This document shows, in pieces, positions 4,784-42,899 of a stretch of 64,000 nucleotides of DNA. The position numbers and the translations under genes are program-made. The number at the start of each line of letters is the position of its first letter. Position 1 is the stretch's first letter. This stretch comes from Gnetum montanum (taxonomy: Eukaryota; Plantae; Gnetophyta). Location: contig MNCI01002026.1 in NCBI GenBank assembly GCA_015680685.1, forward strand, positions 1 to 64,000, read 5' to 3'. The notes under the pieces were generated by a model. That model made no database searches. It was not told the origin of the DNA and saw only the letters and a program-made list of their open reading frames with translations.

Positions 4784-7700
4784 ATTAACTACTGAGTCTA
4801 TTTGGAGGTATCTAGGCCTTGGTGTTGCCAGAGATCAGCAAGCACCTAAATCCTGTTCAAGGACACTCATTGGCGATCATGTCCTAAACGGTCGCCAACA
4901 ATTGTTCAACTAACTCCTCTTTGAGCTAGTTTAGGTAGGCCTCATGATTAACCTTATATTGCCACTTGTGATGCTTTTTTCTCCTACCCCACTCTAGGAC
5001 CCCAAGCATAGTGTTCTTTCTAATTCTCAACGTTTTGGGAGATGAGGTTCATTTGCATCTATTATTCTACCATCTCATGTGATAGCACTGCTTTATCCCA
5101 AATGGAATGCCAATAGGGGACCCATGTGATCTCTTTAGTTTGTAATTCCCTTATATTAGCCACTTGGGCTTCCACAAAGGCCTTGCGGTCCTTGAGCTCT
5201 CTAATTATCGCCTCCTACTATTGAATTTTTTCCCTCAAGGCCAAAATTTGCTCCCATAGAGATTTTTTGGACCTCTTCAACTAGCATGAAGTTTTGGCAC
5301 ACAACATTACTAGATCAATAGAAATCTCATATAACTTCAAGAGTATACTAGAGACATTAGAGGGAAGCTTTGGCAAGGAGTCCATCTTAATGTCTCAGCT
5401 GGGGTTCCACGCCATAGAAGGCACTACATAATCATAAAATACAACCATAAACATAGCATGTAACCTATGATAACCATAATATAAATCTTGTGACATAGCA
5501 AAATAAATAAGGCATAGAAAACAAAGTTCTTTTCTATGTTAGGTGCAACTTGGTGTAACTGGTCAATGATGTCCTTAGCCATCTTGTGCATGAATTCGAC
5601 CTTGTTCGAGACCTCTACCCATGGTTTCACATGAAACTTAGGGATAGGGGCATGAATTGGTGGCTCAAGAACTACTATAACCATAACAATCATTGAATGG
5701 TTAAGATGAAAATCAAACATAAAATAATAATACATAACAAGAAATGTAAATACATGTGCATACTCGGCTCCTTCTCCTCTTCCTCTAGGATGATGATGAG
5801 AGATGTGCTTGGTACTACCTCATTGAACAAGGCAACTAGATCAACATTGGTAAACCCTTCAACCTCATGTTGTTATAAGAGTGTCTTCTCTACACATCTT
5901 TGTTCAAAATTGGCTATAGTAGCTGCATGTCTCTATGCCTCCTCCTTCACAATAACTTGGGTTGCAATGATCTAGTTCTTGTCTATAAACATAACACATA
6001 AAAAATTGATTAGCACTAGAAATTGTAATGTAGCCATAAGAAATTAAAATATAGAATAGCTAACATGTAAATAAATCTTACCTATGACTACTTGCTCTAA
6101 TGACTTAAACTTAAACTTAAGCTTCTTTGTGGTAGGCTGGTTTGATGTTGGTGGTGGTTCCTTTATGGGCCTCTTGAGCTTTGCCCTAGCTTTCCCTTTA
6201 GCTTCTTTGTGTTACCATTTGGCCTTTAGGATGCTCATTGAGATTGTGAGGGGCTCCTTCTCCATGCTTTCATGGGATTGGCATGGTGTAGCATCAAAAT
6301 CCTTGGTGGTAATGGACAATGAATCCTCCATCCCCTTTGGTGGATTTTGGGCCTATACTGTTGGATAAATGTGCCTTATCGAAGGTTTATAAATCTAGTC
6401 TTGGTCTTAAGACATCCATCATTCATTCCTTCATAGCACCAAGAATTCTAAAAACCTCTTCAAGTAACTTGCAAAAATGCAAAATGCATGTGGATGATCA
6501 TAGAGGTTTCCTTATGGACTCTAAGGATCTCATCCTGATGTCCAACAACCAAAGCAGCTACTCTATTGAACCTGATGTCATCTATTAGGGCATTTTAAAA
6601 GGTCTGCCCCTATGTGATGTTGATTACCTTCTTTTGTGATAATAGTTTAGGAAATTCATGGGACCTATTCATGAAGTTATCCATGAAAATTCCAAAGTGT
6701 CCCCTTCTAGCACCAAGCCACTCCAAAAATTTCTCATGATGGTTACTTCCTTCACTATTCTAGTGGCAACCTTTACCCCATCAGTGGGGACATCAAACAA
6801 GTTGCAAAAGGTGCTTCCATCAATGGCTATGGTAATCAAAACACCTCAAATGATGGTGCAGAGGCTATTAACTTCTTCATTGAAGGAGTCAATGACATTT
6901 AGCATCTTTGTGGTGGGAATGGAAAGGATAGGTGCCATAAACAAATCAAACAAAGTCACATGCTGAATTTTTGATTGAATCTACCTAGGCACCTATCCCC
7001 TCAACCACACCTGTGCTGGTATCACCTCACCAAATGTCATGATGAGGGTATCCTCATGATGTCTTGTAAGTGACAAGGTAACATCAGCAAAGGTTGAGGG
7101 TCTTGCAAGGAAACAACCAATACTTAGCATCAACATAAGTAAATTTAACAACTAGTTAAAATGATAGAATGCTTGGAATATTTATAACCATAAAAAATTA
7201 GAAGCTATAATCTTTATGTTCATCCTTTTTCTTTCTCTTCGGTGTGGTTTGAGTAGAGGTACTAGCTGCTAGGATCTAATCCAAGGAGCTCTTGGAGACC
7301 ACCCACTAGTTATGTATCATCCTCTCATCCACACACTTCTTGTAGACAAGGTTGAATATACTAGTTTATTCATCAATGTCTCATCTTAACTATTCATACA
7401 CAACAATTTTTATCTAGGAGCCCTTGGTAAATACATCTAAGGTAGTTTGAGCTACCACCAAGGTTTGATAATTAGTAATCAAGCCTTAATCGTTGATCCT
7501 ATATCTGCAAGAAGTTCACAAAATCAATGAAGTTGGCAAAGGTAGTTTATCTAATAAAGCTAAAAAAATAAAAATACTATAATAACCATGTTCACCCTTG
7601 TAGATGGTACATGGTACCAAGTGCATTCTAGAATAATGTATGGGCTCTATGTGCCACCATCAAAGAATTGTTAGTATTATATTGACTATACTGTCACATA

Positions 7701-8040
7701 GTCTAGATCTCCATGAGGTAACATGGACTAATCATGTTTGTAGTTTTTCCTATTGTCTTAGGAGATTCCTTGTTAGTAATAATCCTGGCAACCAGATTGG
7801 ATGCCCAAGGAATTAGTGTTTCCACTATGATCCTAACCACATTCATGGACAAGTGTGACCACAACATCACACTAAAGTTTTGAAAAATGTAAGGAATTCC
7901 CTTATGCCTAGCTAGAACCATAATGAGACCTTGGCTAAGGTCATATTGGGTAGAGGGGTATTGGCCTTGGGTTGGCCAATGTAGCATAGGATGCCTACTA
8001 ACTCCACGATGATGAGTATGGGCTTTAGAGGAACCCTACA
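4784..8040 (-). pseudogene. B antisense multi-exon gene (FCP1-like pseudophosphatase + PMD/Transposase_32-like + coiled coil), decayed
   Basis: Blocks homologous to A: KPILIIVELVGIL, FSVMLWSHLS, AHRAHTLF*NALGTMY, LFDLF..KMLNVIDSFNEE..NLFDVP, WVEVSNKVEFM..IIDQL, AWNPS. GT donors at 7595, 6081, 5763 and 4783. Confidence 0.8.
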
Positions 8041-9874
8041 TGACAAAACAAAAATATTAGGACCGATTGAAACTACTTAACAAGTTTGTAAAAACATCCT
8101 AGTTAGAGGTGAAATTAGCCCTTGTAAAAAGATCTAAGTATTTATTAAAATTTTCTTAATGAATTCATGCCAAAAAATTACAACCTTTCATAGCCTTGTA
8201 CATCATGGCCAAAACATTATAGCCTAGACAACACAACAAGTTGATGCATAGCCAAACATGAAATCTAAAAAATAGCCATTAGCATAAACATTAAAAAAAA
8301 TAGAAAAAATACTTATAGCTATTAAAATCAAATTTAGAACATCAAAAAAATTTCATAAAATCCACAAAGACATGAAAGTTGATATGAGAAACCTCTACAC
8401 ATGTCAATCACATCCATCTCTAAAGGGGTCAAGTGCTACAACCAAAATTTAACATTGTTGACATAGCCATAACCAAAAATTCATTAAAAATTCATTCAAG
8501 CTCCAATTCTAGTGATTCTAACAAGAAAGTAATCCTTAAATCATGATCCTTCTAGCCATAGCCATTACAACTAGAAATACATAACCATATTTTTCATAAA
8601 ATATTACCAAAGCTAGGAAAAATTGTAGCCATCACCATTAATTGCCTTTCGTGCAAGGTTGGGAGAAAGCTTATTAGAAATCTTTTTGAGATTAAAAAAA
8701 AAGTGATTCAACCATTATTTTAACACTTGAATTGATCCCTACACACCCATAATTTACAAAAATTTATAACCCTTGCCATTTGATTAGAAAAAAATTATTA
8801 ATTTGGATAAAAATCTAGAAATAGTACAAACCTCGATTTGACACAAGTTTAATGAAAAATTCATTAAATTTTTTTTCTAATCCAAATAGAGTGATTCCAC
8901 ACCTATTAGAAAGTTGAATCCAAGACACAACTAGCCATGAACAAAACTTAGCAAAAACCCTTTCAAGTTAGGAAAAATTCATGAATCTACATGGAATTCT
9001 AAAAATGGCATGAAAAACCTAATTGCATGACCTCACAAAAATAGCGATAACTTCATCATTATTAACCCAAATTGAATGCGAAAATAGCCATGGGAAAGCT
9101 TAAATGTAGCACTAAAAGCCTATAACATCAAATATTAAAATTATGTAGTTTTTTCTTAATAAAAAATATACAACATTACTTGCATTTTTCATGCAAAAAT
9201 CAACAAAAAAAGCTTAAAATTCATAAAGCCTAATTTAACAAAGCCATGAAAAATAGTCAAAACAGCCTAAATAATTGATATCCATTTTAAAAAATCAAGA
9301 AGAGGGGGAAATGTTTTGTTGAAATTTACTTTTGATGAATCTTTTAGCCTAGATCTAAGAAAAATGGTTGTATCCGCAAATTTATGGAAAAAACATGAAA
9401 ATAGCATGCCTAATTTTAAAATTCAAATCTACCAAAGCCAGAATAATGAAATGACCATAGCTCTATGTAGAAACAAAAAAAATAAGAGATGGAATTTCAT
9501 TGAAATTTCATTTTAACCCCTCTATTAGTGTAGATTTGAAAAAAATGGCCCCACATATGGTAAGAAAAATAAGAAAATTGGCTAGAAAGTAAGAAAAAAA
9601 TGGCTAGAATTGCCTAGCTTGGAGTAGCCATGGATGAAACTTGGATTGAAATGGATCTAGGTAACCCTGATAGGTCCTTGGCATGCTCATCCACCTTCTA
9701 AATTATGGGATTCCAATTCTTCCCTCCACACTTCTTGGGCACCATAGTTGTTGCACCATGGCTAGGAATGGTTGAAATATGGGAAGAATGGACGTCCAAC
9801 ACTAGCTGAAATGTAGATTGGAGGCTTCCAAATTGAAGATTGATGCTCTCTACAATAAGAAATCTCTACCTAGT

Positions 9875-11167
9875 TGTGCTGTCTGAAATCCTCAGTGCAC
9901 AACTCGAATGAAATGGACACCAAGAGGTCCACAGACAGGAACAGAAGACTCTACCTTCGCTTGAGGGCAAGTTGGAATTGACAAAGGTAGAGTACCTTGG
10001 ATGGTTTGCACATGGATCAGATAAGGATTTACCCAACATACACTAATGCATGATACATTGGGTTATGTGTAAACAGCATAATAAATGTACACTAGAACGT
10101 GAAACGTGCAGGGATGTAAATGGGAGATAGACAAAAATGAATGAAAACTATAGCAAATCTTAGCAAAAAAAATGTAGCAATATTATTGCATGATGAAAAT
10201 TACAATGCATTGGTCTAAACACAGTTATGGATCTGACACAAGGCGGACGAAGAGCCCCGGTGGATGCAGAGGGATAATGGTATGCTGGTCTCAGTTATAG
10301 GCATAGCGTGAAGGCTGTATGCTCAGCATGCAGGGTTGAAGTCCAACATGCAGGATTGGTGTTCTGATTTGCTAAGTGTTCTCAGGTTTTTTATCTCGAG
10401 TTTGCCCAAAATTTCCAACCCCGATCTAGTGAAAAATTGGGGTTTTTATGAGGTTTCTTTGGGCGTTGAATTCGGATCTGGAAAGGTATGAGTGGTTGTG
10501 GGATGTTAGAATTTCGAATTGGGTGACATGTGGAGCATTAACCAAGTGCAAAAGAATAAAACTTTACAAGTGTACAGCGTGAACCATGCCAGCATGTACA
10601 TGCTGGGCATATACGCTAGGCGTACACGTTCCACACGCTTGACAATGTGTGGATAAGCATGAAGAATTCCTGATCAAATTTTGAATTGTGGAGCTATTTT
10701 GCACCCCGATCTAGATGTTTGATGTCCCAAGGATGCTGTCTATCAAATTTAGGCTCATTTGAACTGGATTTGACATGGTTCTAGAGGACCTTCATTGATG
10801 TACATTGTGCTGCACATTGGATGGTGCACGTGGGGCGTACACGCTAGGCATACACGCTAGGCGTACACGCTAGGTATACACACTGGGCGTACACGCTAAG
10901 CGTACATGTTGGGTGTACACGCTAGGCATGCAGGCTGGGCGTACATGCTGGGCATGCAGGATGCATGCCTAGTAGAAACCAAGTATTTCAGGCTCAAAAT
11001 TTTGGCAGGGTTCGACGCCAGATGTTGCTGTAGTCTGTTGTTAGTCCCGGGGAACCATTTCTTGCTCAGTTCGACACCGTCTAAAGCTTCATTCATGCTG
11101 GGGAGCATCATGACCTAGCTTGATTCTTGTTAGAGAAGTACTAAGCTCAAAATTTTGTGGTGTTTCA
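9875..11167 (-). repeat. A 3' LTR
   Basis: Direct repeat of 26917-28162; begins TGAAACACCAC on the minus strand, next to the PPT. Confidence 0.95.
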
Positions 11168-11185
11168 TTGGCCCCTCTTTGTTGA
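11168..11185 (-). other. A polypurine tract
   Basis: Minus strand CAACAAAGAGGGGCCAA directly precedes the LTR; nearly identical in B. Confidence 0.85.
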
Positions 11186-12461
11186 CACTTGGAGGAATCA
11201 ACCTGAGAAGCGTCGATAAAGAAGTAGAAAACACCACAAGCGACCTGGTAGAAACATCATCCTTTGGGACTTGGCCAGATGTCATTGCACCAAGTTCAGT
11301 AGTACATGTGGTTGGGGAAATGAAGTTTTTAGCTAGATAGAGGAAATGGAAATTGTGGGGATTGGGAACTAATCAAGGGATTGTGCATGGTGAAGGGGAT
11401 GCTCTAGTGTGTATACAGGTCACGTTGATCCTTGTCAATAGCCATTGTCTAGCAAACTTGGGACCAAGACATGAGGTGTATGTCCTTTGGTGGAACAAGA
11501 CTCTTATTTAAGGTTTAAGAGGACTTGTTGACATAACCAAAGCCACGATGATGATGTGTTACATTCTTTGGAGGAACAGGACCTCTATTTGGTATTAAAG
11601 AGAACCTGTTGGTGGAGAGCCAAAGCCACGCAATGAGATATTACTTGAGCATTTGAGACTTAAGTACTTGCTTCCAAGACAATTGCCTTCCTACCTAGAG
11701 CTTGTATGGGAAGTGCTAAGGGTCTTGTGTTTCTTTTTATCTTTTTTTTTGATGAACTTTTCTTTGATCTTGTACTCATGCTCAAGTGCCATGTTGTGTG
11801 TTGTAACTACTTAAAAGTGTTGCAATGCACAACGATGTGCTCAATGTTTTGGAATGCACTAGGTGTGTCTGGGGTATGACTAAGTAGAGTATGTTGAGGA
11901 ATAGATGGGAAGTGTAATGGGAAATGTACTAGCGAATGGCTTGATTAACTTGGTTACGTGTATTAGGAACAATATGGTACCTTGCTGCCATGATGAAGCA
12001 TATTCTTGTATGAACACTGCTGAGTGTCATCCTGCAAACACAACTCCAAGAAGACAGGAAAACCATGAGTGAATTAGTAATATATTTGAATAGCAACTGA
12101 TGAAGCAAAGGCACCAAATGAGATTTTAGGCACTAAATGTGAATGGAAGTAATGTTGTTAAGATCAACTAGTGATGAGTGAGGTAGTGGCTCTGATGAAA
12201 TTTGAATGCAGCTATAGATCGAGAGACTAGAGACGAAGCTACCAGTTTATAGTCATAGCGAACTATCGTGGGTTAGTTTTACATCATAACCCATTGGACG
12301 GTGCCAGTTTATCGTCGTAGCAGATAGTACACTACTAGTTTATAGTCTTGGCGGACTGTAAAGAGGCAAACCAGTTTACAGTCTTAGCGAACTTTGGTGA
12401 AAAAATCTATGGTAGTTTAAAGTAATATTTGATGGGTTCTAGTTTATTGTCATTACGGATG

Positions 12462-12815: not shown

Positions 12816-15800
12816 TCAAACGTAGAACAGTTTTAAGTACAAGTGATTGGTCGGATGTGCAAGCTCATTGCCTTCTATGTTAGCCAATTTAAATGCTCCA
12901 TTGTTGTACATTTTGGTTACCAAGTAGGGCCCTTCCTAGTTGGCTAAGAATTTGTCTGAGTGTTCTCGAATGGCTTTGAGTACAAGTTCACCTTCTTTGA
13001 TTAGGTGCTTATGAATATTGTGTCAATGGCACTATCATTGTTACTTTTGGTACCATTCAATCTGATCGAGCGCACGTGTGCCTTCCTACTCCACTGAGTC
13101 CAAGTCAACAATGTGTAGTCGTTGTTTTGTCCTTTGTTGAGGAGTTCAGAGAGTGTGATCCTTAAAGATAGTACCTACAACTCCAAAGAGAAAATATCTT
13201 TTGAACCATAAACAATACTATATGGCATTTTACCTATAGAGGTCTGATGCGTGGTGCAATAAGCCCATAGTGCATATACTAACTATTTGTGCCATTTTTT
13301 CTTGCCCTAAGTTAGCATCCTTTTGAGCACTGTGATGATGATCTTATTTGTAGCTTCAGCTTGTCCATTTCTCTGAGGGTAGTAAGGGGATGAAAATGAA
13401 TGTTTGATCCCTAGGCTTTCATAAAAAGTTCTAGTTTCGGCATTGTTGAACTGTGTCCCGTTATTAGTGATGATGGTCATCGGAATGCCAAAGTAGGTCA
13501 TGATGTTTTCTAGAATGAATTTGCATACGTGTTTGGATGTGATATTTCTAAGGGGAATAGCTTCAACCAATTTTTGAAATATTCTATTGTGGTTATGATA
13601 AAGCTATGTCCTACCAAAGATGGAGGCGTTATTGGTCCAACAAGTCTAACCTCCACTTCTGGAAAGGCCAGGTGATCTGCATTGTATGCAGCTCATTTGG
13701 TGGAACATGTATCAAATTGCTATTTTTTTGATAGATATTGCACATTTTGGCCTTGGAGAAACAATCGTACTCCATGTGTGGCCAATAATAGCCTAAACGT
13801 CTTATTTTTTTTGCCATTTCTTTAGGTGCTATGTGCCCTCCGCATAATCTGTCATGTACTTGCTCGACGATGGTTTGGCCATCAGTGCTACTAACGCATG
13901 TTAACAAGATGCCTTCATAGGATCAATGACATAATGTGTCACCTACCACTGCATACTGTCGAGAACATTTTCGTACTACGTCCTTTTGTACAGTCATCAA
14001 ATGTTGAGGCAGTTCACTATGTAAAAGATACTCCTTTATGTCATCATACCATTCTACAACTTGCGTTGTACTAACTGATGCGATCAATAATTCATCTAGA
14101 CTATTAGTTATGGGTTTAGTACAACTGATTATAGCATTGGGTAATGTGTGGAACATGGTTGGCAGTATGTTTAGTGCTAATGTGGTAAGTGCATCTACAA
14201 TGGTGTTATCATTTCTGGAAACATGTTGCACATCTACATTTTTGAATCACTTCAGTAAGTGCTTAGTCAAATCATAGTATGGTTGCAAGTGTTGTGCTTT
14301 GCACACATAACTGTCTATGACCTGATTTAGAACTAATTGTGAGTCACCTCTGACTACCAGTCATGTGATGTCTGAAGCTAATGCTACCATGGGACCTCTA
14401 AGGAGACCTTCGTACTCTACTACGTTGTTGGTACAGTGAAAGTCGAAATGATAAGCAAAGGGTTGGATCTCCCTAGAGGGATAGGTGATGACAGCAGTAG
14501 CACTTCCCCCTCTAGAGGTGGATGCTTCATCAAAGTTTAAAATGGCATCGTAGTCATCGGGTACTATGTCTATTGCACTCACATTTTCATCAGAGAATTC
14601 TGGTTCTATCATTGCCTGATGGTGCATTGGTGATGTAGTCATTTGATTTGCTATGGCTTGACCCTTAACTGATAATTGCACTATGTAGCGTAGGTCAAAC
14701 TCAGCTATCATGGCTTTCCAACGAGCTATTCTACTTGACTCATAAATGTTTCCTGTGATGGCTTTGAGTACATTATCCTTGCAAATTATATTGACTTGGT
14801 TACGGAAGAGGTAATGTCGCCAGTTATTTAGGGAAAAGACAAGGGCTAAACATGACCTTTCCACCTCATTGTACTTCTTCTCATGGGCTACTAATGCATG
14901 TCTTAAGTAATAAATAGGGACTTTAGTTCTATCCTCTCATTTTTGGCAAAGCATGGACGCGATTGATAAGTCTGAAGTGGCAAGGTAGATGTAGAACAGT
15001 TTATCATTTCGAGGTGGATAAACTATGGGTAGTTGAACAAGCGTTGTTTTAATGTTGTCAAACACTTCCTAGCACTGTGAAGTCCATTCAAAATAGATGT
15101 TCTTGCATAGCAAGTGGTTCATAGGTTTCAACTTGTCTGTCAATTTTTCTATGAAATGCCTGATGAACTGTAATCTTCCTTGTAGACCGCAAAGTTCGGT
15201 AAGGTTTCTAGGTGGTTTTAAGTTTGTTATGGCCTTAACCTTATTAGGGTCTACTTGTATCCCTACTTCTGAGGCTATGAATCCAAACATTTTTCCTGTT
15301 TTGACTCCAAAGACACATTTCCTTGGGTTAAGTCTCAGCTCATATTTTAAGCAACACTTTAGCACCAAGTCAAGATGTTGTACATGTTGTTCTGATGTTT
15401 TTGATTTAACCATGATATCATCCACATAGTCATTGAGTGAGTTGAAGATATAATCACTAAAGATAAATGGCATCGCTCTTTGGTATGTAGCACCGGCATT
15501 CTTGAGATCAAATGACATCATCGTGTAGCAAAAAGTACCCCATGGTGTTATAAAGGTCATCCTAAGTTGATGCTCAGGGTTAATTTGAATCTAGTTATAT
15601 CCTAAAAAGCCATCCCTAAAAGATAATAAGGCATGCCCAGCGGTTGAGTCGACCAGTTGATCAATGCTAGGTAGGGAAAAATCATCTTTTATCATTACAA
15701 CGTTGAGGTCCTGGAAGTTAATGCATAGGTGAATGCTTCCGTTCTTCTTTGGGACAATGACCATGTTGGATACCCAGTCAGTATAGTCAACAACCAAAAT

Positions 15801-16289
15801 GAAACCAGCCTGATAAATTTTGGTGATTTCATTATGAACTGCCAATGCTAGCTCAGGCTTAACCTTATGTGCTTTTTGTTTCACTGGTCTTAATTTTGGG
15901 TTGAGTATAATGTTGTGCTAGACTATTCGAGGATTTAACCTAGGCATGTCAGTGTAAGACCAAGCGAATGCTTTTATGTTATCTTTAAGCACTTATGCTA
16001 TGTCACTGGCTAGTTGTGGGCTTAACAATGTACTTAGTTTCAGGATTTTAACTTCACCATCTAGCACGGTAATGGGGACTTCGGCTAAGGGGTCTTCGGT
16101 GATGCTATCTGTTTCTAGGTTCAAAGTCTTGGTCATCATTTCAAAGTAATCTAGCGTTTGTTGGGTTGATGCCACAAAAGTATCATTTGTCACTGAGCCT
16201 AAATTAATAGACTCCATATTGATTTCTTGGGTGATCGTTCCATGCGGTCCATTGATTGACAGTGGTAAGAATAATTGCTTGCTATCCAT
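12816..16289 (-). pseudogene. pol: A pol 3' part: RT - RNase H - archaeal-type RNase H (aRH) - integrase, with stops and frameshifts
   Basis: RT: FDLKNAGATYQRAM, YVDDI. RH: ERSCLALVFSLNNWRHYL. aRH: LNFDEAS, CTNNVVEYEGL, GDSQLV. INT: H..LCGGH, YYWPHM, PYYPQRNGQAEATNK. Confidence 0.93.
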
Positions 16290-16419
16290 GATGTTTGCTC
16301 CTACCAATAAATAGTGTGCAGTGTCAATCAGGTGGTTGGTTATTTTTGGATGTAAGTAATTTATGTGTTTATGCATCTAATTGGACCAAGGTATGTGAGG
16401 GTGTCGTACCCAGACACAT

Positions 16420-17832: not shown

Positions 17833-20800
17833 CTGATTTGCCATGATTTTCTGGGAACTTGCAAGGACCCTAAGCCTTTCCTCCTAGTGGTGGAGCTTGT
17901 TGGGGTTTTGGCGTGGTTTGGGCCCATTGATTTTGACAAACCTACTCCTGATATGATCATTGGTCAAAATGTGGTATGGTTTAGAACAGGTGTTAATGAG
18001 TTTCTTCCTTTCATGCTAGAGAGATTCAACATGATAATATGGTCTCACTTAAGTGATTAGTTAGCATGGAGCATGCTTGAGACCATGTTGCCAGGATCTT
18101 TGAATGGGGTAGTAGCTTTTATGGAGGACATTGATGAGGGACTACTCATGATTAAGGATGGTTCTTCTGGAGGACCTAGATCTACCCGCCCATTGTCGCA
18201 TGTATGGGACTTATTGTCAGATGGCCTTCACCACATTAATAACACCCTATTCCTAGCTACTCGTGCACATACTTTGTTCCAAAACCCTCCTGGAACGATG
18301 TATCGGGTGGGCAAGTAAAGTTGTTCAATTTATTGTTTCGCTTTGTTGCCTAGTATTTGTTTATGTTTTGACTGTCGTTTCTTTGCAGGCCTCAATTCGA
18401 TATAGAAGGGGTGTGTGTAGGCAATGATGCGCTCGCTTTGGCTCGTATCGCCTTAGAGGCTTTCATGGTAGCCCCACTCTCTGTGGTGCCGTGTTAGTGC
18501 AAACTAAGGATGATATTGTTCATTTTCACGAACGATAATCAAGGGCACTTGTGCAATGCGAGGCTAGGGGATGGCTACATGGGGATTGGTCCTGTAATGG
18601 GCCAGTTTTCCCACATGATTCTAATTTGGCACCTAGCTGGAATCCATCATCTGATGGTAGGTCACCATATTTTCTTACGCCTTAGTTTGTTTATTCTGCT
18701 ACATCATTGGTTATATTGACTCCACGGTGTTATCTTGTGCGTACAGTGGATGTCCCTTCTAGTGGAGCCACTATCACAACTGGGTGAGTACCTTGTTTAT
18801 GAAATTTGGGGAAATCAATGATGCACAATGATGGCTACATATCATCAGCTTTTTGAGTGATGCGGGCCTCATGGATTTGTTTACTACCCTGAGCCCTAAT
18901 ATTTCTGTGATGGAGATGATTAGAATCATTGATTCTTTCAATGAATCTGTCACCTGCTATAGCACTCTCATTAAGGGCATCAAATTGGTTTTCCATCTGT
19001 CGGAGGAGTTCTTTTCAGACTTCTTTGGTGTACCAGTAGCTGGGACTAAAGTGATTTTGGATAGAGTGTAGAAGGAGATCCATGTGGTTTGTGAATTGGA
19101 GGACTAGTTCGGTATTCTTAAAGGCTCTAAGGAATTCCCTATGCAGGGGAAATTGAAAGTGGTAGAAGTTAATGAGTTGTATCCCTTGTTCAGAGCATTG
19201 GTATTTCCCAAGTCTTTGTCTCAAGTAAGAAATTTTGGGGTAGAGCCTATGCATATCATGTACACTATTTTAGAGACTTGGGTACATTATAACTAGGCCT
19301 AGTTTTTTCTTTTGGGTTTACACAGGGAGATAGTGAGGTTACATTCAAATATTGAGGCACAATCCCACTTCACCTTTACGTTCTTTGCACATTACTTACG
19401 CCGGCTAGCTGAATTTTTATTTTTTCACGTAGATAACAAGTATGTGTTAAGCGATCACCACCAACTATCTCGTCTATGGATTCACCACTTATTTGAGATG
19501 GCCAAATCTCAGGATGCTCTTGAGGGGATTGACGAATTGGTTTCTATCACAATAGAGGGGTCATATGGTGGTTCAATTTATACATGTGACAGCGTAGGGT
19601 TGGAGCCAGATCGTGTGCCCTATACTACTAGGAGAGTCAATCAGGTGATCGAGGAAATGATCAAGAAAGAAAAATCAAAATTTTAGAAGTGTAAGCATCC
19701 TAGGGAAGTTGCTCTAACTATAGATGAACCCAGGGTGAAACGTATATGGTTTAAGATGCCTATATGGGGTAAGCTTGATTCACTAATTTGTCCTTGTCCT
19801 CATCATTATTTTTACTTTGTTTTTCAGTTGTTTATACAAAACTAACGTTGAATCTATGAATGTCACTAGAGTTAACTTCTGGAATAAGAAGAGAGAGGTT
19901 AGCACCAATAATCGAGGAGGAAGAGGTCTCAATGAACTTAAATGAGGAAGACAAAATGGGCAAAGATGAAATGGAAGGACTGAAAGATCAGGAGGAAGAT
20001 ACCACAGAAAAGGGTAACATCGATGATCAAGATGGGGTCAATGAGATGTTTGATGGCTTTCTCGGAGGGAGGCTAGACCATGGTGATCCTTCGAATCAGG
20101 AGGAAGACAGAGATTTTGGTATATTCACCATATTATGTTTATTTGCCTTTTGAATTGTGTGTTTCATTATTCAAAGTTTTAATTTTATATTTTTTACTAC
20201 TACTAGGCAAAAATTTTGAGACTAGGACACTTCCTAACATTCATTTGGAAGTCCCTATGATGAAGGCTCCCACAGAAATGACCACCGAAGTTAACCCATC
20301 TCCCATGCATGAACCATTTACTTGGATTGAAATTCCAAGTAAAATGGATTTTATAACTAGCATTGTTGATGAGGTAATTGATCGCATCGAGCAAGCTCAT
20401 CCTGAAATAGGTACATATATCTCGAGCTTTTCGAATCCTTCGATTTTTCACATCTGTTTCTATTGTCCAATGTCTAATGTATGTTTTCCTCATATGAGTA
20501 GGGGCTAAACTGAAATGGAATCCATCTGAGGTGCCTTGTATTGATAGTTTTTCTGTGCTTCCTCTAGAGATTGAGCAAGTACCTTGGCAAATTTATGATG
20601 AAGTGGCAGAATGTGTTGTGCAGAATGCTAAGTCTCTTTGGACGTGCAGGCGCTCCATCAAGAGGCTATGGTTGCAGATTCAGGTGAGCAAAAAAGAGAT
20701 TTCCAAGTTATCAGCTGAACGGGATGACCTCAAATTGCACTATGAGTTTGCCTCAGCGAATTTAACAGGTGATCGTTCTTGGCAAACTTCTGAAGTTACT

Positions 20801-21493
20801 TATAGCAGATATTGGAATTTATTAAATTGCCAAGTATCGATGACCCAGGAGCTAGCAAAGCGTAAGGCACAAATAGATTTACTGAACCTCAAATGTCAGG
20901 ACTGGAAGGCTTTCGCTTCTAAGGTGCGGAAATGGGGTCAAGATGAAAAGACCCATAAGTATCATTACAAAAAATCGTTGAAGGAGGTATCTATAGAGAA
21001 GCATCAGCTAGAGATGTTTGTTGAGAGTTTAGGCCTACGCTCTTCATTTGATGTGTTTGCTAAGCATACTGTGGTGGAGATGGAATCACCCAAGAGAGTA
21101 ATCACCATAGCTTCTGGGGAGGTTTCTGTGGGAGAGTTTCCTCTAAAATGTCCCACTTGGTCTACGGTGGACAAGGGGAAGGCTTTGGCCAACGTTGATC
21201 TGGGCCTTGATGGGACTGACTAGGCAAGCATCTCTAAAGAAGAAATCCTTCATCGGTTGGAATTCGGTCTAGGAGGATCTTCTTCAGTAAGTCATTTAAA
21301 TTTGTAAATTTTTTTTATTAGATAAATTTTGGGATTTTTCTCTTTTCCTTTTGTGTTAATGTGTTAATTGTTTTCTATTACCTTTTCGTAGGGTCATGGA
21401 GATGACGATGTTCAAGAAGGTGGTCCCAGCGGAGCAGGAACCCACGGTGCCAGAGAGTCTGAAGGGGACACCCCTCCCAATCGTGATGTTTAG
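17833..21493 (+). pseudogene. A antisense multi-exon gene (FCP1/NIF-like pseudophosphatase + PMD/Transposase_32-like + coiled coil + acidic tail)
   Basis: GT-AG introns at 18315-18388, 18657-18746, 19769-19869, 20119-20206, 20411-20501 and 21287-21391. The last four were checked and join the listed ORFs in frame to TAG 21491-21493. Possible first exon 16923-17111 (phase 0). Scattered TAG stops and frameshifts. Confidence 0.88.
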
Positions 21494-21965: not shown

Positions 21966-21995
21966 ATGTTGTTGCGGACATGTGATAGTTTAACG

Positions 21996-24900
21996 TCATT
22001 TCAGATGAACAATGTATTTTAATGGTTTAACAATTTTTTTGATTTTTCTGAATTTAACATTAGGAGTGATACTGATAGGTGTGATTCTGTACTCAATGTC
22101 CCCTTCACTGATTATGTTAAATGGTAATTCAGCCCAAGGGACGTCTGATGGAATAGGCTCTATGTTAGTGTCTTTTAGTGTTTCCGTATGTATAGTAGTT
22201 TCATTGTTTGTTGTAGTTTCCAAGTTAGATGGTGTATGTAAAGTTTTAGGTCTGGGTGTCTCTATGTTGGGTAAAGTTTCATTTACGTTTAATGGATCAT
22301 TGCTTACTAGTTGCGTGCAACTTTGTTTTTCATTTGTGTTATCCTTTTCAGGCTCTTCAAACTTAACCTTTGAGCCTTGGTCTATGTCCGTATGCGACAA
22401 GATGGTAGGTGTAGCAGCCTCCCCATGTATAATGATTTCACCGCCTTCATAAGGTAGATGAATCTCTTGGTGTATTGGGGAAGAGACTGCTTTGAGTTGG
22501 GCCAGCTAGGGTCTTCCTAATATTAAATTGAATCCTAGCATTTCGTCGATGACAACAAAGTTAGCTGATGTGGGGAATCGATCCTCGGCTATAAAGTTCA
22601 TAATTATGGTGCCTTTTACTACTACGCGTGATCCACTAAATGATTTTAAACATGTGGTGGAGGTTGGTCTGATTAGTTCTGTAAGCCCTAATTGTTCAAT
22701 GATGGGATAGGGTACTACGTTTGTGGCAGCTCTGTCATCTACATGCACCCGATGTATTTTGAATTGATTTACTTGTATCATTATGAACATAGGTGCAGTT
22801 GTCACTTCTCCTATTTTCTCATCAATTTTGATGTTGTCAATGTGGAAACGTAGTGATTTAGAAGTTGATCCTTGAGGCGAATACATTACCGCATGGATTG
22901 AAGGTTCATTTGCAGGTAAGTCTTCACTTACTGGGACCAATGTCAACATGCGTACTAGCACTTTGCGATGAGTTTGAGAAGTTAATATCAGGTTATATAG
23001 GCTTAAAGAAGTATTTTTCTATTTAAGTGCCTACGTAACTTATGTTAGGGCTATTGCCAGATCTTTACTGTTAGGTGTATGCTTGTTAATGGTTACTTGG
23101 TCCATTGGGCCCAACAATTTTATCTCATGTGTGGCTGGTTTGACGTTCTCTTCCATAATTGTTGATTTGGATGCATCATGTATTCCCAATGATTCTCCCT
23201 TAGTTTTTGGTTCATTAGTAGGTGATGCCATGGGTATTGCACTTAATGGAGTAGGCTTGGGGGGTCCCAAGGTGAGCTGTTAACGTTCCTTCTCCAATCA
23301 TTCTCATGTGAGCCTATCTGCCAGGCGTTCCCGCATGTGGCATAGGGGAACATTTGGTTTCTGAACATCTAGTTGCTCTGGAACCCATATGACGTATGAA
23401 GTATGATGGGGTTGTGATTGGATGGTTGAAGGTGGTTGAATGTCAAGCTGCCTAGGTGCTCTAACAACGTACGGGGTTGGTTTATTTTGTGTTTGCAGGG
23501 TGGAAGGTTGACGATTATCAGGATATTTGGGTATCCTGACAACATACGAAGTTGGTCTAGTTGGTGGTTATTCCTCCATAGTTGCGACCATAGGTGGCAT
23601 TCGGACTACATAGGGAGCAGGCCAGGTAGGAGGTTGCGTGTTTGCAGTAGTAGTGGTGGGAGGTACACACACCACGTATGGTTTTGGTGGTATGGTAGAT
23701 GCTGCCACCACGGGGGGTATCTAGATGACATAGGATCTTTGGGGGGTAGGTGAGTTACATGGAGAGTATGATGATTGAGGTGCAGGTGTTTGTGGAGTAG
23801 GAGAAATATGAACTACAAATGGTCTCTTAGGTATTTGTTGTTCATTATCTGAATAAATAGTGTTAATCCTAGGCACTTCTCGTTCATTGTCCAAGTGGAT
23901 AGTGTTAATTACATATGGAGCTTCCTTAGTATTTAGAGGATCCTTATATATGCCCATGGCCTGGTTTTGTGGTTTGACCGGGTTGGCCTCATCAAAAGTG
24001 ATCTGACCTCTGTCGATCATCCATTGGATATCTTGTTTCAAGGTGAAACAATAGTTAGTGCCATGCCCATTGAATTGATGATAATCACAAAAGCCGTCTA
24101 TTCTAAAGCCCCTTGGAACTGGGGGTTCATCTGGCATTGCTAAGCTTGGGCTCTCTACCAATTGACAGAATCGATCATGTCTTTGGATTGCTGCGGGGGA
24201 CAATTGTTTATTTTTCATTAACCTGGCCTTCAAGAGTTGGTCAAATAATTGTGAGTGTTTCATGGGTAACAGTGTGTATTGAGAGGGGTCCCTCCTCTCA
24301 AAGTTTCTTGCATGACCTAGCATAGGATTTTGTGATGCAGACAGTTTGGGTGCAGTAGCGGGAGCATGTCTAGCATAGTTAGTAGGGGCAGTAGGTGGTT
24401 TACCTTGTTGTCCCGTAATCGTTTGTTGTGTTTCCACTACTACTGCTATAGTTTCCTTAGCCTTTTCTTTGTCCTTCTTATTATGTTGGTTTTTAAAGGC
24501 TAAATAGGCGAGGTCATGGCTATTTTGGGCTACCTCTTCTATATTCTTTATTTGTACAAATGCTTGGCTAAGAGTGCATGTGTTAAGGTAGTATAATTTG
24601 GACTTCACAAAATCATTAACATCCCCTTTAAGAATAGTGAGGAGATAAGTCTCCGGAATTGGCTTATGAAGCTCATTGAGGGCAACACTCCACCATTGAA
24701 TAAATTTTTGAACAGGTTCAAGCGGTGCTTACTTGACCTGCATGAGGCTGTCAAGTGTTGCTTCAGGATTCAAGTTATACTTGAACCTAGTAATGAATTG
24801 GTGTAATAAATCTTCTAGCAAAGATATTGATTTTTGGGGCAAAGCTCGATACTAGTCAACTGCTCTCCCTATGAGGGACATGGGAAACACTTGCAAAATG

Positions 24901-26160
24901 GCATGTGGCCATGCTTGAAGTAACACACATTCTAATCTAAACGTTATAAGATGGGCGTTGGGGTCTATCTCCCCATTGTACTTGGTTAACGTGGAAGGAA
25001 ACACCCTTAGCTAACGTCAAAGGTGAAACCGAAGAGCTGATAGGGTCATCTTGGTAGAAATCCACTATCTTAAGCTCTTCGTCGGTAGCTATTTTGAGGT
25101 GCTTGACCTCATCAGTTAGCTCCTACATCAGCTTTTTGGCATCAGCCTAGCCTTGGGAACTAGGTGAGATAGTAGATTGATTATGTTGTGTAGTATACAA
25201 ATTAGATTGTTGTATGGTGAGCTGGAAGGAGGAGAGTTGTGTGGTTGGAGGTTGTGCTTGTGGAATATTCATAGTGGGTGGTACTAAGGGTGGCACATTG
25301 TAGGAAAAGGGTTGTTGTGGTTGTTGTTGTTGTACTTGGGGGATGTTAGTGGGTGGAACCATAGGAGGTGGTATGTTATAGTGAGGGGGTTGATGCGGTT
25401 GGACACCAGTTGCAACCCACTGCCCAGTCACGTTTTGTGTAGGAACACCCTGAACTTGTTGAGTTGAAGTGGTGAAGGGTGCTCCTTGGGTCTGGATTTG
25501 TGGTATGTAGTGTGCGGATGTAGAAGCTGGTATCACATATGGCATCCTGATCACTCAGGATGGGAAGGTCACTCCTATATTATTTTGAGGAGCTTGTTGA
25601 TGGGGTTGTATTTGCAAGAGAGGGGGTAATGTGATGACTGGAGGAATAGTTGCAAGGGGTATATTGAGTTGGGTATCGGTCACCAGGGATATGGGAATAA
25701 GCATGGATGGTTCCTATTGGGGTACATGTGTTTGGGTGATTTTAAATGGCTGGAGGAACATAGTTTCCCCTATGAATGGGTGAAACAGCGGGTTTGAGTA
25801 AGTTTGTGGGCTAAGGGTATGGTATGAATCTTCATGTTCAAACTGAGCTGCAAAATCATCCTCCTCTTCTAATTAAGTATTTTCCACAGACTGGTCTAGA
25901 GACTGACTCCTTAATAGGAGGAGCTGTAAGATGAGCTCAGAGTAGTGCTCTGGAAGAGGGATGATGTCATACGGGGAGGGGATGAACTCATGTCCTCCCC
26001 TATGAAATAGTTCATATTGTCTCTTAATCTCCATTTCAGTTTGATCAACTGCTAGGCCAGCTTGGACTTTTATGCATATAAAATTATATTGCTCTTTTGT
26101 TATAACATTAAATGAGGGATTTCTTCCTTACAATCTGAGAGACCGGCGAGGTCTCGCCAT
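21996..26160 (-). pseudogene. gag: A gag-protease frame (decayed)
   Basis: Starts MARPRRSLRL; Pro/Gln-rich region; retrotransposon gag core; Tat-type knuckle FCDYHQFNGHGTNYC; protease IHRVHVDDRAATNVV...FNLILGRP; ends with its own stop at 21996. Confidence 0.9.
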
Positions 26161-26916: not shown

Positions 26917-28162
26917 TATGCTTTCTGAAATCATTAGTGCACAGTTGGAATGAAACAGACACCGAGAGGTCCACAAACAGGTACAGAAGACTCTACCTTC
27001 ACATGAGGGTGAGCTGGAATTGGCGAAGGTAGAGTACCTTGGGTGGTCTGCAAGTAGATTAGACAAGGATTTCCCCAACATACACTAATGTGCAATACAT
27101 TGGATTATGTGTAAACAACATAATAAATGTAAACTAGAACGTGAAACGTGCAGGGATGTAAATGGGAGATAGACAAAAACGAATGAAAACTGTAACAAAT
27201 CTTAGCAAAAAAAATGTAGCAATATTATTGCATGATGAAAATTACAATGCACCGGTCTAAACACAGTTGTGGATCTAACATAAGGTAGACGAAGAGCCCT
27301 GGTGGACGCAAAGGGATGATGGTATGTTGCTCTTGGCTATAGGAACAGTGTGAAGGCTGTATGCTCAGTGTGCAAGATTGGTGTTCTAATTTGCTAAGTG
27401 TTCTCTGGTTTTTTGTCTCTGGTTTGCCCAAAATTGCCAACCTTGATCTAGTGAAAAATTGGGGTTTTTATGAGGTTTTTTTGAGTGTCGGATTCAAATT
27501 TGGATAGGTATGAGTGGCTGTGGGATGCTTAAATTTCAGATCGGGTGACATGTGGAGCGTTGATCGAGTGCGAAAGAATAAAACTTTACAAGTTTACAAC
27601 ATGAACCATGCCAGTGTGTACATGCTAGGCGTATACGCTGGGCATACACGTTCCACACACTGGATAGCATGTGGACAAGCATGAAGAATTCCTGATCAAA
27701 TTTTAAACTGTGGAGCTATTTTGCCCCTGGATCTCAATGTCTAATGTCCCAAGGATGCAGTTTGTTGAATTTAGGCTCATTTGGACTAATCTGACATGGT
27801 TCTGGAGGACCTCCATTGATGTACACTATGCTACATGCTGGATGGTGCATGTTGGGCGTACACACTAGGCATACATGCTAGGCATACACACTGGTTGTAC
27901 ACTGTAGACATACACGCTGGGCGTGTATGCTGGGTGTACACGTTGGGTGTGCAGGATGCATGCCTAGTGGAAACCAAGTATTTTGGGCTCAAAAGTTTGG
28001 TAGGGTTCGATGCCAGATGTTGCCGTAGTCTGCTGTGGATCTTGGGGAACCATTTCTTGCTTGGTTCAACTCCGTCTGAAGCTTCAATCATGTTGGAGAG
28101 CATCATGACCTAGCTTGATTCTTGTCAGAGAAGTACTAAGCTTAGAAATTTGTGGTGTTTCA
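26917..28162 (-). repeat. A 5' LTR
   Basis: Direct repeat of 9875-11167; flanked by the PBS and the TSD. Confidence 0.95.
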
Positions 28163-28849
28163 CTAGTCTCTCTCCCAATGCACTATTTTTGAAAAATGGA
28201 ATTGTGATCAAAACTTACAAAATTTGACAATACAAATTCCACCAAAACCTAAATGCCCATCTCTAAACCCTAGTTATCCATTTAGTACACCATAACTCTA
28301 AGTGCACTAAAGTGCAAATAGGGGAAAATCTCTTCCACATTGTGATTGGTGAAAGTTAAGATCAAAATTCAAAATTTTAAATTTTTGGGTTATAGGCCCC
28401 ACTATACATCCTCACTTTTGGCCTAAAAATTACATCAACATTAAATTTTAAGCACTTTTGACACTTAGAAAAATAATCAAGCCTTAAATCCTATGCATCC
28501 ATGTTGATTATATCATGTCTAGCATGGATACATGCATCTCACTTCATAAAACCATTAAAAATATAACTTTTTTACCATTTAGTAGCCAAAACCTAGCTTT
28601 TTCAACCCTTGGCTCCCAAAAGGGATTAGACATGGACAAGAATAGACAACATGGGTTTCCATGCTAGGGCAACATTGCCCAACATATAATAAGGGTGGTA
28701 ACACCCATTCTTACCTACCAACACGCATCTAGTCCAAGTTAGACCCATGAAGTGATCCAACATAACCTAGAACCCCTCCAAGCATTCCTGGAAAGCCTGC
28801 AACCTCACCAAAGCTAGTCAAAAGTGGTTGAAATATTGGGATTTGCTGG

Positions 28850-31098: not shown

Positions 31099-31103
31099 AT
31101 CCA

Positions 31104-42400: not shown

Positions 42401-42899
42401 AAGGCCATCATCAACTTGCTCAAGAAGATGCTCAACAATAGCAAGTGCAAATGGCATGAGTGGCTTGTCCATGCACTATGAGCGTATAGAACAACCTATT
42501 GTATGGAAACTAGTGTAACATCTTATAGCTTGGTTTATGGTTTTAAATTTTTTTTACCTCTTGAATTACAATTTCCATTACTCTGAGTAACTTTGACTAA
42601 CTTTATCAACAATGAGAAGAGTAAAGAGTTGTGGATAACGATCCTAGACTTGGTGGAAGAGTAGAATATGCAAGCACTTTCTCACATCAAGCACTAGCAA
42701 GATCAAGCGTAAGATCAAGGAAGGTGACCTAGTCCTCAAAGCCATCCATGAACATGTAGACTAATTCTTAGCCAACTAGGAAGGGTCCTTCCTTGTCACC
42801 CGAGCCTATGGTAATGGAGAATTTAGGGTAATTGACATGGATGGGAATGAGTTGGCCAATTTAGTCAATCATTCCTATCTAAAGCCATATTACATGTAG
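39453..42899 (+). pseudogene. pol: B pol 3' part: RT - RH - aRH - INT, heavily decayed
   Basis: Colinear with A pol: KDDFPLPSINQL, FMDGFSGYN, DYVDDI, GDSQL, YFTKWVEAIP, HSFSSPYYP; stop at 42897-42899. Confidence 0.92.

Follow-up and report, generated by a model that had tools for sequence, protein, structure and literature searches.

In the window analysed here (the whole stretch of DNA under study, 64 kb), three copies of one gene were found, designated A (plus strand), B and C (both minus strand). They probably represent a decayed multi-exon accessory gene, which occupies, in antisense orientation, the interval separating the gag-protease ORF from the RT ORF in Tat/Ogre-type Ty3/gypsy elements and the product of which likely combined a dead FCP1/NIF-like fold, a domain designated here as X, an acidic linker and a coiled coil.

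Structure and homology of the gene copies

The relatedness of the copies was detected at the protein level. Domain X of A and that of C share 34% identity over 247 aligned residues (E 1e-48), and a tblastn search with the reading of A revealed both domain X (E 9.7e-12) and the upstream NIF-like part (E 7.9e-17) in B. In tblastx comparisons, A 18554-22499 was colinear with C 63709-59585 and A 17872-20971 with B 8025-4953, every match between gene copies being one of the plus strand of A with the minus strand of B or C. The order of the blocks, i.e., NIF/FCP1-like exons, domain X, acidic linker, small conserved exon and coiled coil, is identical in all three copies despite their divergence to 30-42% amino-acid identity. 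The parts recognized are listed below.

Copy A
17833..18306, plus strand: NIF/FCP1-like exon 1, with one in-frame TAG (Pfam NIF, E 0.028)
17832/17833 and 18306/18307, plus strand: flanks of exon 1, acceptor-like AG/C and donor-like G/GT, respectively (sequence reading)
18390..18656, plus strand: candidate second NIF-like exon, preceded by a polypyrimidine-AG at 18389
18748..19686, plus strand: domain X exon, enclosing the 18840-19520 segment of the initial annotation
19860..20153, plus strand: acidic linker exon, D/E-rich, in a different frame
20296..20409, plus strand: small conserved exon, matching B 5648-5535 in tblastx
20498..21223, plus strand: coiled-coil ORF of 241 codons without interruption
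Copy B
7595..8076, minus strand: NIF-like part, frameshifted, stops present
6251..7094, minus strand: domain X, frameshifted, stops present
4953..5648, minus strand: small conserved exon and coiled-coil part (tblastx, colinear with A)
Copy C
63656..63900, minus strand: NIF-like tail, the remainder being beyond the window end
62576..63511, minus strand: domain X, with an open stretch at 62924-63352 (143 codons) and stops after it
61077..61800, minus strand: coiled-coil part (tblastx and codon comparison with A)

The motif of the small conserved exon is present in C as well, near 61.9 kb, as judged by sequence reading. The blocks of A occupy three different frames, and in B a corresponding GT follows the same residues as the donor-like site at 18306/18307 in A. 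The second NIF-like exon of A contains the stretch GNDALALARIALEAF, similar to GDNDTLSLTERAIREF in C, and its positions 18554-18607 pair with C 63709-63656 in tblastx. Domain X starts about 30 codons before the earlier call, near 18748, and apparently constitutes a single exon within a larger colinear gene. The initial annotation had described its domain as fused to a pseudophosphatase; as a single ORF this fusion does not hold, the two domains belonging to different exon-like blocks, the borders of which are GT/AG-like.

The motifs quoted in that annotation are real. The motif LMDLF...EM...(D/N)SFN...FF.D(F/L)FGVP..G occurs in frame 1 of 18832-19686 (plus strand) in A and in frame 1 of 62576-63352 (minus strand) in C, and the same translations contain YPLFRA..FPK and (Y/F)N-stop-A.(Y/F)F..GLH.E.VRLH, while B carries the first motif set at 6669-7094 (minus strand). 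The tryptophan that had been placed in (Y/F)N(W)A has to be withdrawn, as both A and C have an in-frame TAG at this position. An additional stretch of domain X, FGE(I/V)..AQ.WL, is common to A and B and recognizable in C.

Location of the gene within LTR retrotransposons

The following features were assigned to the host elements.

26919..28182, minus strand: 5' LTR of the A-host (blastn; TG..CA ends by reading)
21996..24995, minus strand: ORF1 of the A-host, comprising gag, a protease-like region and a conserved tail (stop at 21996; tail by reading)
13118..16376, minus strand: pol of the A-host, comprising RT, RNase H, a second RNase H and integrase (Pfam)
9877..11187, minus strand: 3' LTR of the A-host (blastn; TG..CA ends by reading)
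56259..59850, plus strand: gag, protease-like region and tail of the C-host (tblastx, colinear with the A-host; tail by reading)
39465..42934, plus strand: pol of the same type, a candidate for the host of B, with strand and side as expected for B

Copy A is enclosed by a single LTR-bounded element of 18.3 kb, the LTRs of which are 83.1% identical over 1302 bp (blastn, 9877-11178 versus 26919-28173). No target-site duplication of this element was found, its flanks, AGTTG and CTATT, being different. Pfam analysis of pol revealed RVT_1 (2.9e-13), RT_RNaseH (3.1e-15), Integrase_H2C2 (2.4e-8) and rve (1.6e-9), as well as a second RNase H (RVT_3, 9.1e-15) at 14181-14456, between RNase H and integrase. 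The latter arrangement marks Ogre/Retand-type Tat elements according to the available sections of PMC6317226. With its LTRs, RT, two RNase H domains and integrase, the host element of A belongs to the Tat lineage of Ty3/gypsy. Its sense ORF1 stops at 21996 and the RT ORF begins near 16376, so that the two are separated as in Ogre, by a gap of ~5.6 kb. A PMD ORF upstream of gag was not found in the A-host, the ORFs at 25150-26436 (minus strand) giving no Pfam match at E<=0.01.

The gag and protease-like region of the C-host at 56259-59737 (plus strand) shares 41-62% amino-acid identity with its A-host counterpart in the longer matches, and for ORF1 of the A-host at 21996-24995 the identity to the C-host region is 45-62%. 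Retrotrans_gag was detected in the C-host only (E 5.8e-5), as was the protease signal, which is weak (gag-asp_proteas, E 0.13). Copy C lies directly after the gag-protease ORF of its host and antisense to it, and is thus placed and oriented relative to its host as A is. The placement of A and C inside Tat/Ogre-type elements, antisense and after the gag-protease ORF, is firm, and the earlier proposal that the domain is transposon-borne was correct. The occurrence of the gene at the same place in the diverged hosts of A and C, together with its conservation at the protein level, points to a conserved extra ORF of these elements.

The position of B is compatible with such an extra ORF of an LTR retrotransposon. 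Neither gag nor protease was found in its flank at 1-4953. The candidate pol at 39465..42934 is 53% identical to the A-host pol over 491 residues and contains rve (6.8e-11) and RVT_3 (2.8e-8). This pol is situated beyond nested insertions, at a greater distance from B than that between A and the A-host pol.

Decay of the copies and traces of past selection

All three gene copies are pseudogenes, disrupted by in-frame stops or by frameshifts. The stretch 18832-19686 of A has four internal stops, all of them TAG, and a further in-frame stop, TGA at 18829-18831, is located just 5' of this reading; the stretch of C has five. Reassignment of the stop codon as a cause of the shared TAG was ruled out, since TGA and TAA stops and frameshifts also occur in the copies. 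As all copies in the window are relics, the gene does nothing here today. The role of a nuclear anti-silencing factor, suggested in the initial annotation, is not supported as a function for the host, since three copies out of three are dead and A and C lie antisense inside LTR retrotransposons.

Identities at codon positions 1/2/3 between A and C amounted to 0.52/0.61/0.32 in domain X and 0.51/0.58/0.32 in the coiled coil; between the NIF-like parts of A and B they were 0.53/0.69/0.29 and 0.46/0.66/0.24. Thus, the blocks of the gene show conservation at positions 1 and 2 and saturation at position 3, as does the protease region of the element itself (0.69/0.78/0.31 in the protease tail). Such a pattern suggests a once-selected accessory gene of the retrotransposon rather than a host gene.

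Domain X

The assignment of the domain to the PMD, PF20167 or DUF1985 families found no confirmation. In Pfam hmmscan with the domains of A (285 aa) and C (259 aa), X being written at stops, PF10536, PF20167, DUF1985 (PF09331) and Transposase_28 (PF04195) were absent at E<=10; HMMER filters discard very weak matches, which leaves room for a remote PMD relationship of domain X. An HMMER profile of the three domains gave no matches at E<=0.001 among 1.84 billion representative proteins, and a profile search of PDB yielded a chance-level match alone (E 0.73). Domain X had no match in NCBIfam, and homologous-protein searches with copy C in two settings found none. Relatives were also sought in viral contigs and in metagenome contigs, where none of the 99 and 540 pattern matches, respectively, was confirmed. 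Unannotated plant repeats are few in the libraries searched, and the empty searches are therefore weak evidence of novelty. Domain X, for which no plant mobile domain match was detected, may be regarded as an orphan domain.

A feature search of ESM-Atlas with the open stretch of C returned DUF1985 (0.89, 162 shared features) and PMD (0.87, 140 shared features) as the only named look-alikes, both scores being below 0.9 and true family members typically sharing 170 features; in the PMD cluster, PMD is assigned to 20% of the members. This language-model kinship is a lead, not a test. The F...F(G)VP..G motif of domain X resembles the N-terminal motif of DUF1985/PMD-type plant transposon domains. 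The AlphaFold2 model of domain X built with the 3-row alignment was of low confidence (mean pLDDT 33.9, no residue above 50).

The NIF/FCP1-like region

The dead phosphatase that had been proposed to adjoin the domain was recovered in part: a NIF/FCP1-like region with its catalytic aspartates replaced lies upstream of domain X in A and B, and its scores are below the family cut-off. The best Pfam match of the NIF-like part of A was NIF (PF03031; E 0.028), covering profile positions 33-73 of 160 with 14.6 bits, below the gathering cut-off of 21.8 bits. The top PDB match of the A and B profile was UBLCP1 (3shq; E 0.0054, 19.8 bits, 96 positions, query 54-149). In the HMMER alignment, the D-D of motif IV in UBLCP1 is opposed by A-T in A and A-H in B, and VELVG stands in both copies where the DxDxT of motif I is expected, the latter being a reading by eye outside the tool alignment. 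We consider it likely from these alignments that the catalytic aspartates have been replaced in A and B and that the region is a dead phosphatase-like fold; TIM50 is an inactive member of the FCP1/SCP/UBLCP1 fold.

The phosphatase-like assignment itself is weakly supported. No NIF match in Pfam was obtained from the pieces of B, the second exon of A (which had no Pfam match at all) or an off-frame reading of the upstream stretch of C. NCBIfam gave no match to the NIF-like part, no homologous proteins were found with the alignment of A and B, and a phmmer search of PDB with the part of A alone found none. The AlphaFold2 model was of low confidence (mean pLDDT 40.2).

Acidic linker and coiled coil

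Downstream of domain X, the acidic linker and the coiled coil of the initial annotation were recovered, while its basic patch proved weak (the last 45 residues contain 7 K/R and 7 D/E). The linker of A contains 28 D/E versus 9 K/R in 97 residues. In the coiled-coil ORF at 20498-21223, the heptad score, a crude home-made measure of periodicity, reached 64 windows, whereas 200 shuffles gave 6.2 on average and 30 at most. The coiled coils of A and C are 34% identical over 233 codons, and weak Pfam matches of Filament/DivIC type were obtained with the ORF of A.

Proposed function and alternative explanations

We propose that the gene was transcribed from the strand opposite to the genomic RNA of the element, in which case its own introns would survive reverse transcription. 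For Pol synthesis, the 5.6-kb gap would have to be removed from the sense RNA by splicing or else circumvented; if spliced, it could be an enlarged form of the known Ogre intron between protease and RT. The accessory protein might oligomerize via its coiled coil, its dead phosphatase fold might bind a phosphorylated partner (the RNA polymerase II CTD is a guess), and the protein might act on the transcription, RNA processing or silencing of the element itself. This functional step, i.e., partner binding and an effect on the element, is speculative, and we regard it as doubtful. A bolder version, to which we give a small chance, is that an Ogre-like lineage made its protease-RT intron a compartment of 5-6 kb for a spliced gene on the opposite strand. 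Its product would join a dead CTD-phosphatase-like fold to a coiled coil and to a domain very remotely related to PMD, and would serve the element in steering RNA polymerase II or in escaping silencing. If true, retrotransposons would have a module of their own corresponding to MAIN/MAIL1-PP7L of the host.

The gene could instead be a passenger, either a host gene or a fragment of another transposon, that entered an ancestral element a single time and was carried along without a role. Its intron-like gaps and a domain resembling a cellular phosphatase family agree with this, and transduction and nested insertion are possible origins of extra ORFs according to the accessible part of PMC7264820. 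However, A and C are ~34% identical and have nevertheless kept codon positions 1 and 2 with position 3 saturated, although a reading frame without a role would have been lost by then. Moreover, the catalytic-site replacements are common to A and B and hence older than the split of these copies. Capture is a possible origin of the gene, whereas the absence of a role fits badly, which makes the passenger explanation as a whole unlikely. An independent mobile element, e.g., a DNA transposon with a gene, separately inserted into each gypsy copy, appears highly improbable. Nested insertions abound in the window, but A and C share both position (after the ORF1 tail and before RT) and orientation, the colinearity continues through the flanks into gypsy sequence, and no terminal inverted repeats were found around 16300-22100; of the two short inverted pairs near the gene, one is wholly inside it and the other has one arm inside.

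The initial annotation itself seems quite unlikely. It envisaged a nuclear anti-silencing factor in which a pseudophosphatase is joined to a chromatin domain of PMD/Transposase_32-like type, as a parallel to MAIN/MAIL1-PP7L. It could draw on the ESM-Atlas look-alikes of C, on the existence of Tat elements with PMD and coiled-coil extra ORFs (available sections of PMC4408406) and on the actual pairing of PMD with a phosphatase-like protein in Arabidopsis (available sections of PMC7156037). These points are opposed by the lack of Pfam and profile matches, by Atlas values short of those of true members, by a phosphatase-like part of another fold class than that of PP7L, and by the fact that the copies are all dead and inside retrotransposons. 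The decayed antisense accessory gene thus remains our preferred explanation.

Comparison with known systems

Plant LTR retrotransposons often carry extra genes of unknown function; the ones on record are situated either 5' of gag or in the interval from pol to the 3' LTR. In Tat elements they are built as a domain plus a coiled coil (PMC4408406, in its accessible text). As far as the available parts of PMC4408406, PMC7264820 and PMC11963269 go, Ogre ORF1 encodes PMD and a coiled coil in sense orientation upstream of gag, and the antisense ORFs of Retand, Grande and RIRE2, located between pol and the 3' LTR, encode Transposase_28 or PMD with a coiled coil. Measured against these partial accounts, the present gene resembles the Tat extra ORFs in its Tat-type host with two RNase H domains, its conservation across diverged families and its combination of a globular domain with a coiled coil, and those of Retand, Grande and RIRE2 in its antisense orientation as well. 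Unlike them, it is located between the gag-protease ORF and RT rather than at the ends of the element, consists of several exon-like blocks with an added NIF/FCP1-like N-terminal part, and has a main domain without a Pfam match to PMD or Transposase_28. An antisense gene in the protease-RT gap of LTR retrotransposons was not described in the literature searched, nor was a NIF-family or NIF-like domain inside an LTR retrotransposon reported there. A conserved, intron-bearing antisense gene in this gap would therefore be a new layout, in which the splicing or bypassing of the gap that the element needs is linked to an opposite-strand gene.

The Ogre intron, which splits the gag-protease from the RT ORFs and averages 274 bp in the available sections of PMC6317226, is the nearest counterpart of the gap. 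Both systems have separate gag-protease and RT ORFs with a sense-strand non-coding gap at the same place, as well as the second RNase H between RNase H and integrase; in contrast to the Ogre intron as described there, the gap here is ~5.6 kb long, harbors an opposite-strand gene and would be spliced by inference.

The parallel to MAIN/MAIL1-PP7L and MAIL3 is conceptual only. In common with them, a transposon-associated domain is here combined with a probably inactive phosphatase-like module. Judging from the accessible text of PMC7156037, however, those are host genes with a true PMD, and the domain of PP7L and MAIL3 is of PPP type, whereas the module considered here is HAD/NIF-like and belongs to a retrotransposon-borne gene that is dead in three of three copies.

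With FCP1/SCP/UBLCP1 (NIF, PF03031), the upstream region shares weak concordant matches over ~100 residues, including the region of motif IV. It differs from these enzymes in scores below the family thresholds and in the replacement of the catalytic aspartates in both copies showing the region, and a phosphatase-like pseudoenzyme of this kind would give a concrete handle on the binding partners of accessory proteins.

Domain X and its copies

The main domain of the gene, designated here as domain X, is found in all three relic copies of the gene, A, B and C. In copy A it is read in frame 1 of 18832-19686 (+) as one protein-like stretch broken by four in-frame TAG codons, and the other two copies are as follows.

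Domain X in copies C and B
62576-63352, minus strand: copy C, a 143-codon open stretch, then five stops
about 6251-7094, minus strand: copy B, with stops and frameshifts

None of the three copies of domain X is intact. Copies A and C align with 34% identity over 247 residues (E = 1e-48), and copy B was recovered by tblastn using A's reading (E = 9.7e-12). The three-way alignment contains 16 invariant columns, two of which, at the end of B's row, depend on a doubtful placement of B's last residues; these columns lie mostly within the motifs quoted in the initial annotation, which the translated copy A does carry. Given these E values and the shared motifs, the observation of the domain is real and the homology of the three copies is far beyond chance. 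In correction of that annotation, B and C belong to the minus strand, the domain starts about 30 codons earlier, and the residue taken for 'W' corresponds to a TAG codon in A as well as in C.

Exon-like structure of the antisense gene

In a tblastx comparison of 16000-22500 against the window, copy A was colinear with B (A 17872-20971 versus B 8025-4953) and with C (A 18554-22499 versus C 63709-59585), all matches among the gene copies pairing the plus strand of A with the minus strand of B or C.

Blocks of the gene in copy A
17833-18306, then probably 18390-18656, plus strand: block 1, NIF/FCP1-like region (weak similarity)
18748-19686, plus strand: block 2, domain X, conserved in A, B and C
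after domain X, plus strand: block 3, acidic stretch, 28 D/E versus 9 K/R in 97 residues
20296-20409, plus strand: block 4, short conserved block (tblastx colinearity)
last block, plus strand: block 5, heptad-periodic open frame of 241 codons

The blocks occupy three different frames, the stretches between them open with GT and close with a run of pyrimidines and AG, and the donor-like site that follows the first block has the same position in A and B. We read the blocks as a predicted antisense gene with five or six exons at the minimum. By a crude, home-made score, the 241-codon frame shows strong heptad periodicity, with 64 windows, whereas 200 shuffles averaged 6.2 and never exceeded 30.

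The region upstream of domain X is, quite probably, phosphatase-like (NIF), judging by sequence similarity. The best Pfam match of this part in copy A is NIF (PF03031; E = 0.028, 14.6 bits at a cut-off of 21.8), copy B on its own gives no NIF match, and among PDB entries the A+B profile best matches UBLCP1, a phosphatase of the NIF family (E = 0.0054). In the profile alignment the two motif-IV aspartates of UBLCP1 stand opposite A-T (copy A) and A-H (copy B); judged by eye, the expected place of DxDxT is taken by VELVG in both. The AlphaFold model of the NIF-like part has a pLDDT of 40.2, too low to be usable. If the call is right, the phosphatase-like domain would have been inactive before the divergence of A and B.

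Host elements and position of the gene

Direct repeats at 9877-11178 and 26919-28173 (83.1% over 1302 bp, ends TG..CA) delimit an 18.3-kb minus-strand LTR retrotransposon, the A-host, which carries copy A antisense.

Coding regions of the A-host
ORF1, ending at stop 21996, minus strand: gag, protease-like stretch and conserved tail
pol, starting near 16376, minus strand: RVT_1 (2.9e-13), RT_RNaseH (3.1e-15), Integrase_H2C2 (2.4e-8) and rve (1.6e-9)
RNase H–integrase interval, minus strand: second RNase H (RVT_3, 9.1e-15)

Pfam assigned a gag only in the homologous C-host, the element carrying copy C (Retrotrans_gag, 5.8e-5), and the Pfam protease match is weak (E = 0.13, C-host only); for the aspartyl-protease profiles run on both host elements the best E values were 0.13-0.23, again in the C-host only. 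Retropepsins usually carry D-(T/S)-G, and at this place the protease-like regions 22347-23132 (−) and 58946-59737 (+) have HVDDR and HVDDG. According to PMC6317226, the Ogre and Retand clades within the Tat lineage are distinguished by an added RNase H placed between RNase H and integrase.

Copy A fills the 5.6-kb ORF1-RT gap of the A-host on the opposite strand. Copy C comes after a plus-strand gag-protease ORF (56259-59737), which is 41-62% identical to that of the A-host in the longer matches; its place and orientation relative to the C-host are those of copy A in the A-host, and the A-C colinearity extends beyond the gene, into the gypsy tail. Beside copy B, the stretch 1-4953 yielded neither gag nor protease; a pol of the same type (39465-42934, plus strand, 53% identity over 491 residues) lies on the side and strand expected for B, separated from it by the A-host and another LTR pair. 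The surroundings of copy B are compatible with the layout of A and C, proving nothing.

Direct repeats 31098-31397 and 37462-37761 (86% identity, 6364 bp apart) look like LTRs of a smaller nested retroelement, in which a retropepsin-like ORF was recognized by reading (34266-34682, minus strand; no Pfam match at E≤0.01).

Repeats near the gene

Short arrays of about 30-bp units with a near-palindromic core (TTTAAGGCCTTA) occur at both borders of the copy A gap (16423-16589 and 21832-21894, plus strand); others occur at 39145-39164 and 42936-42982 (minus strand), including a place immediately before RT of the 39-kb pol, related 27-bp arrays (60063-60115, 60244-60319) following ORF1 in the C-host. 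The array 12-mer, at ≤1 mismatch, occurs 9 times versus 0.63 expected. These arrays may be conserved non-coding signals edging the antisense-gene compartment. Tandem CAGCGTG(C/T)AG...GGGTCT units stand directly upstream of the first NIF-like exon (17270-17378, 17683-17760), and similar ones in the leader that follows the 5' LTR (26440-26745) and in both LTRs (10833-10955, 27845-27941), all on the plus strand; they could be promoter-like repeats. Between integrase and its 3' LTR, the A-host contains a 37-bp tandem array (12465-12796; 8.7 copies, 81% matches), and 48001-54000 is a 6-kb stretch of 27-29% G+C without a Pfam-matching ORF.

Past selection and decay

For A against C, the identities at codon positions 1/2/3 were 0.52/0.61/0.32 (domain X) and 0.51/0.58/0.32 (coiled coil); the NIF-like parts of A and B gave 0.53/0.69/0.29 and 0.46/0.66/0.24, and the host element's protease tail, for comparison, 0.69/0.78/0.31. 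Positions 1 and 2 are kept and position 3 is saturated, therefore the gene was under protein-level selection while the element families diverged, which argues for a retrotransposon accessory gene rather than a passenger or a host gene.

At present every copy is broken, and the LTR-retrotransposon accessory gene is known in the window from relics alone. TAG accounts for 15 of the 20 read-through stops (TGA for four, TAA for one), and one aligned codon is TAG in A (19294-19296) and in C (about 62921-62923) alike; a second stop is probably common to both in the second NIF-like exon. The TAG excess would be most simply explained by transition-driven decay at methylated cytosines of repeats. A change of the genetic code was rejected as its cause, since other stops and frameshifts occur too.

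Identity of domain X

The initial annotation tentatively called the domain PMD/Transposase_32-like, and the Pfam check did not bear this out: at E≤10 none of PMD, PF20167, DUF1985 and Transposase_28 matched domain X, the sole match listed being Pyr_excise at chance level (E = 0.14). No match was found in NCBIfam and nothing meaningful in PDB; the A+B+C profile had no match at E≤0.001 among 1.84 billion representative proteins, word-based protein searches found no relatives, and scans of viral and metagenome contigs gave none confirmed. On the strength of these searches, domain X is at present to be regarded as an orphan. Its AlphaFold2 model from the three-row alignment has a mean pLDDT of 33.9, too low to be usable. 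A feature search of the ESM-Atlas, queried with the open stretch of C, is the sole pointer toward the PMD-type call: its top look-alikes were unnamed Streptophyta clusters (0.92), and the only named families were DUF1985 (0.89, with 162 features shared) and PMD (0.87, with 140), each below the tool's stated levels for true members. A PMD-type kinship, if there is one, would be very remote.

Proposed mechanism

Most likely, the gene would be transcribed opposite to the element's genomic RNA, so that its introns, not being removed from that RNA, would stay in the reverse-transcribed molecule and persist in new element copies. As in Ogre, Pol would be expressed from sense RNA spliced across the 5.6-kb gap, or otherwise bypassing it. 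The coiled coil would let the protein associate with itself, the inactive phosphatase fold would serve as a module that binds a phosphorylated partner, and domain X would offer a second interaction surface; the RNA polymerase II CTD as target is guessed from the substrates usual in the family.

Comparison with known systems

Extra ORFs of Tat-lineage elements are described as 'PMD + coiled coil' or as 'Transposase_28 + coiled coil' (PMC4408406; PMC11963269; PMC7264820). Those with PMD precede gag in sense orientation in Ogre, and in other lineages they are antisense and close to the 3' end. The present gene resembles these extra ORFs in its host lineage, its antisense orientation and the plan 'domain + coiled coil', but differs in its place in the protease-RT gap, its predicted multi-exonic structure, and its NIF-like N-terminal part and unmatched main domain. 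The gag-protease and RT ORFs of Ogre are divided by an intron (mean 274 bp) spliced from part of the transcripts (PMC6317226). In the literature searched, neither an antisense gene in the protease-RT interval nor an LTR retrotransposon with a NIF domain was found described; Steinbauerova et al. (2011) and the survey domain tables, outside that scope, may bear on both points. NIF is absent from the nine domains, out of fifteen non-canonical ones of LTR retrotransposons, that are named in one section of a survey of 121 angiosperm genomes (PMC9289625).

The interpretation offered in the initial annotation holds partly, in outline; its family call and its host-gene reading are not supported. Its statements on MAIN/MAIL1-PP7L and MAIL3 are correct according to PMC7156037. 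The parallel with that module is conceptual only, because, according to the same text, MAIN/MAIL1-PP7L combines a PPP-type domain with a true PMD, whereas the antisense gene combines a putative NIF-like part with the unmatched domain X.
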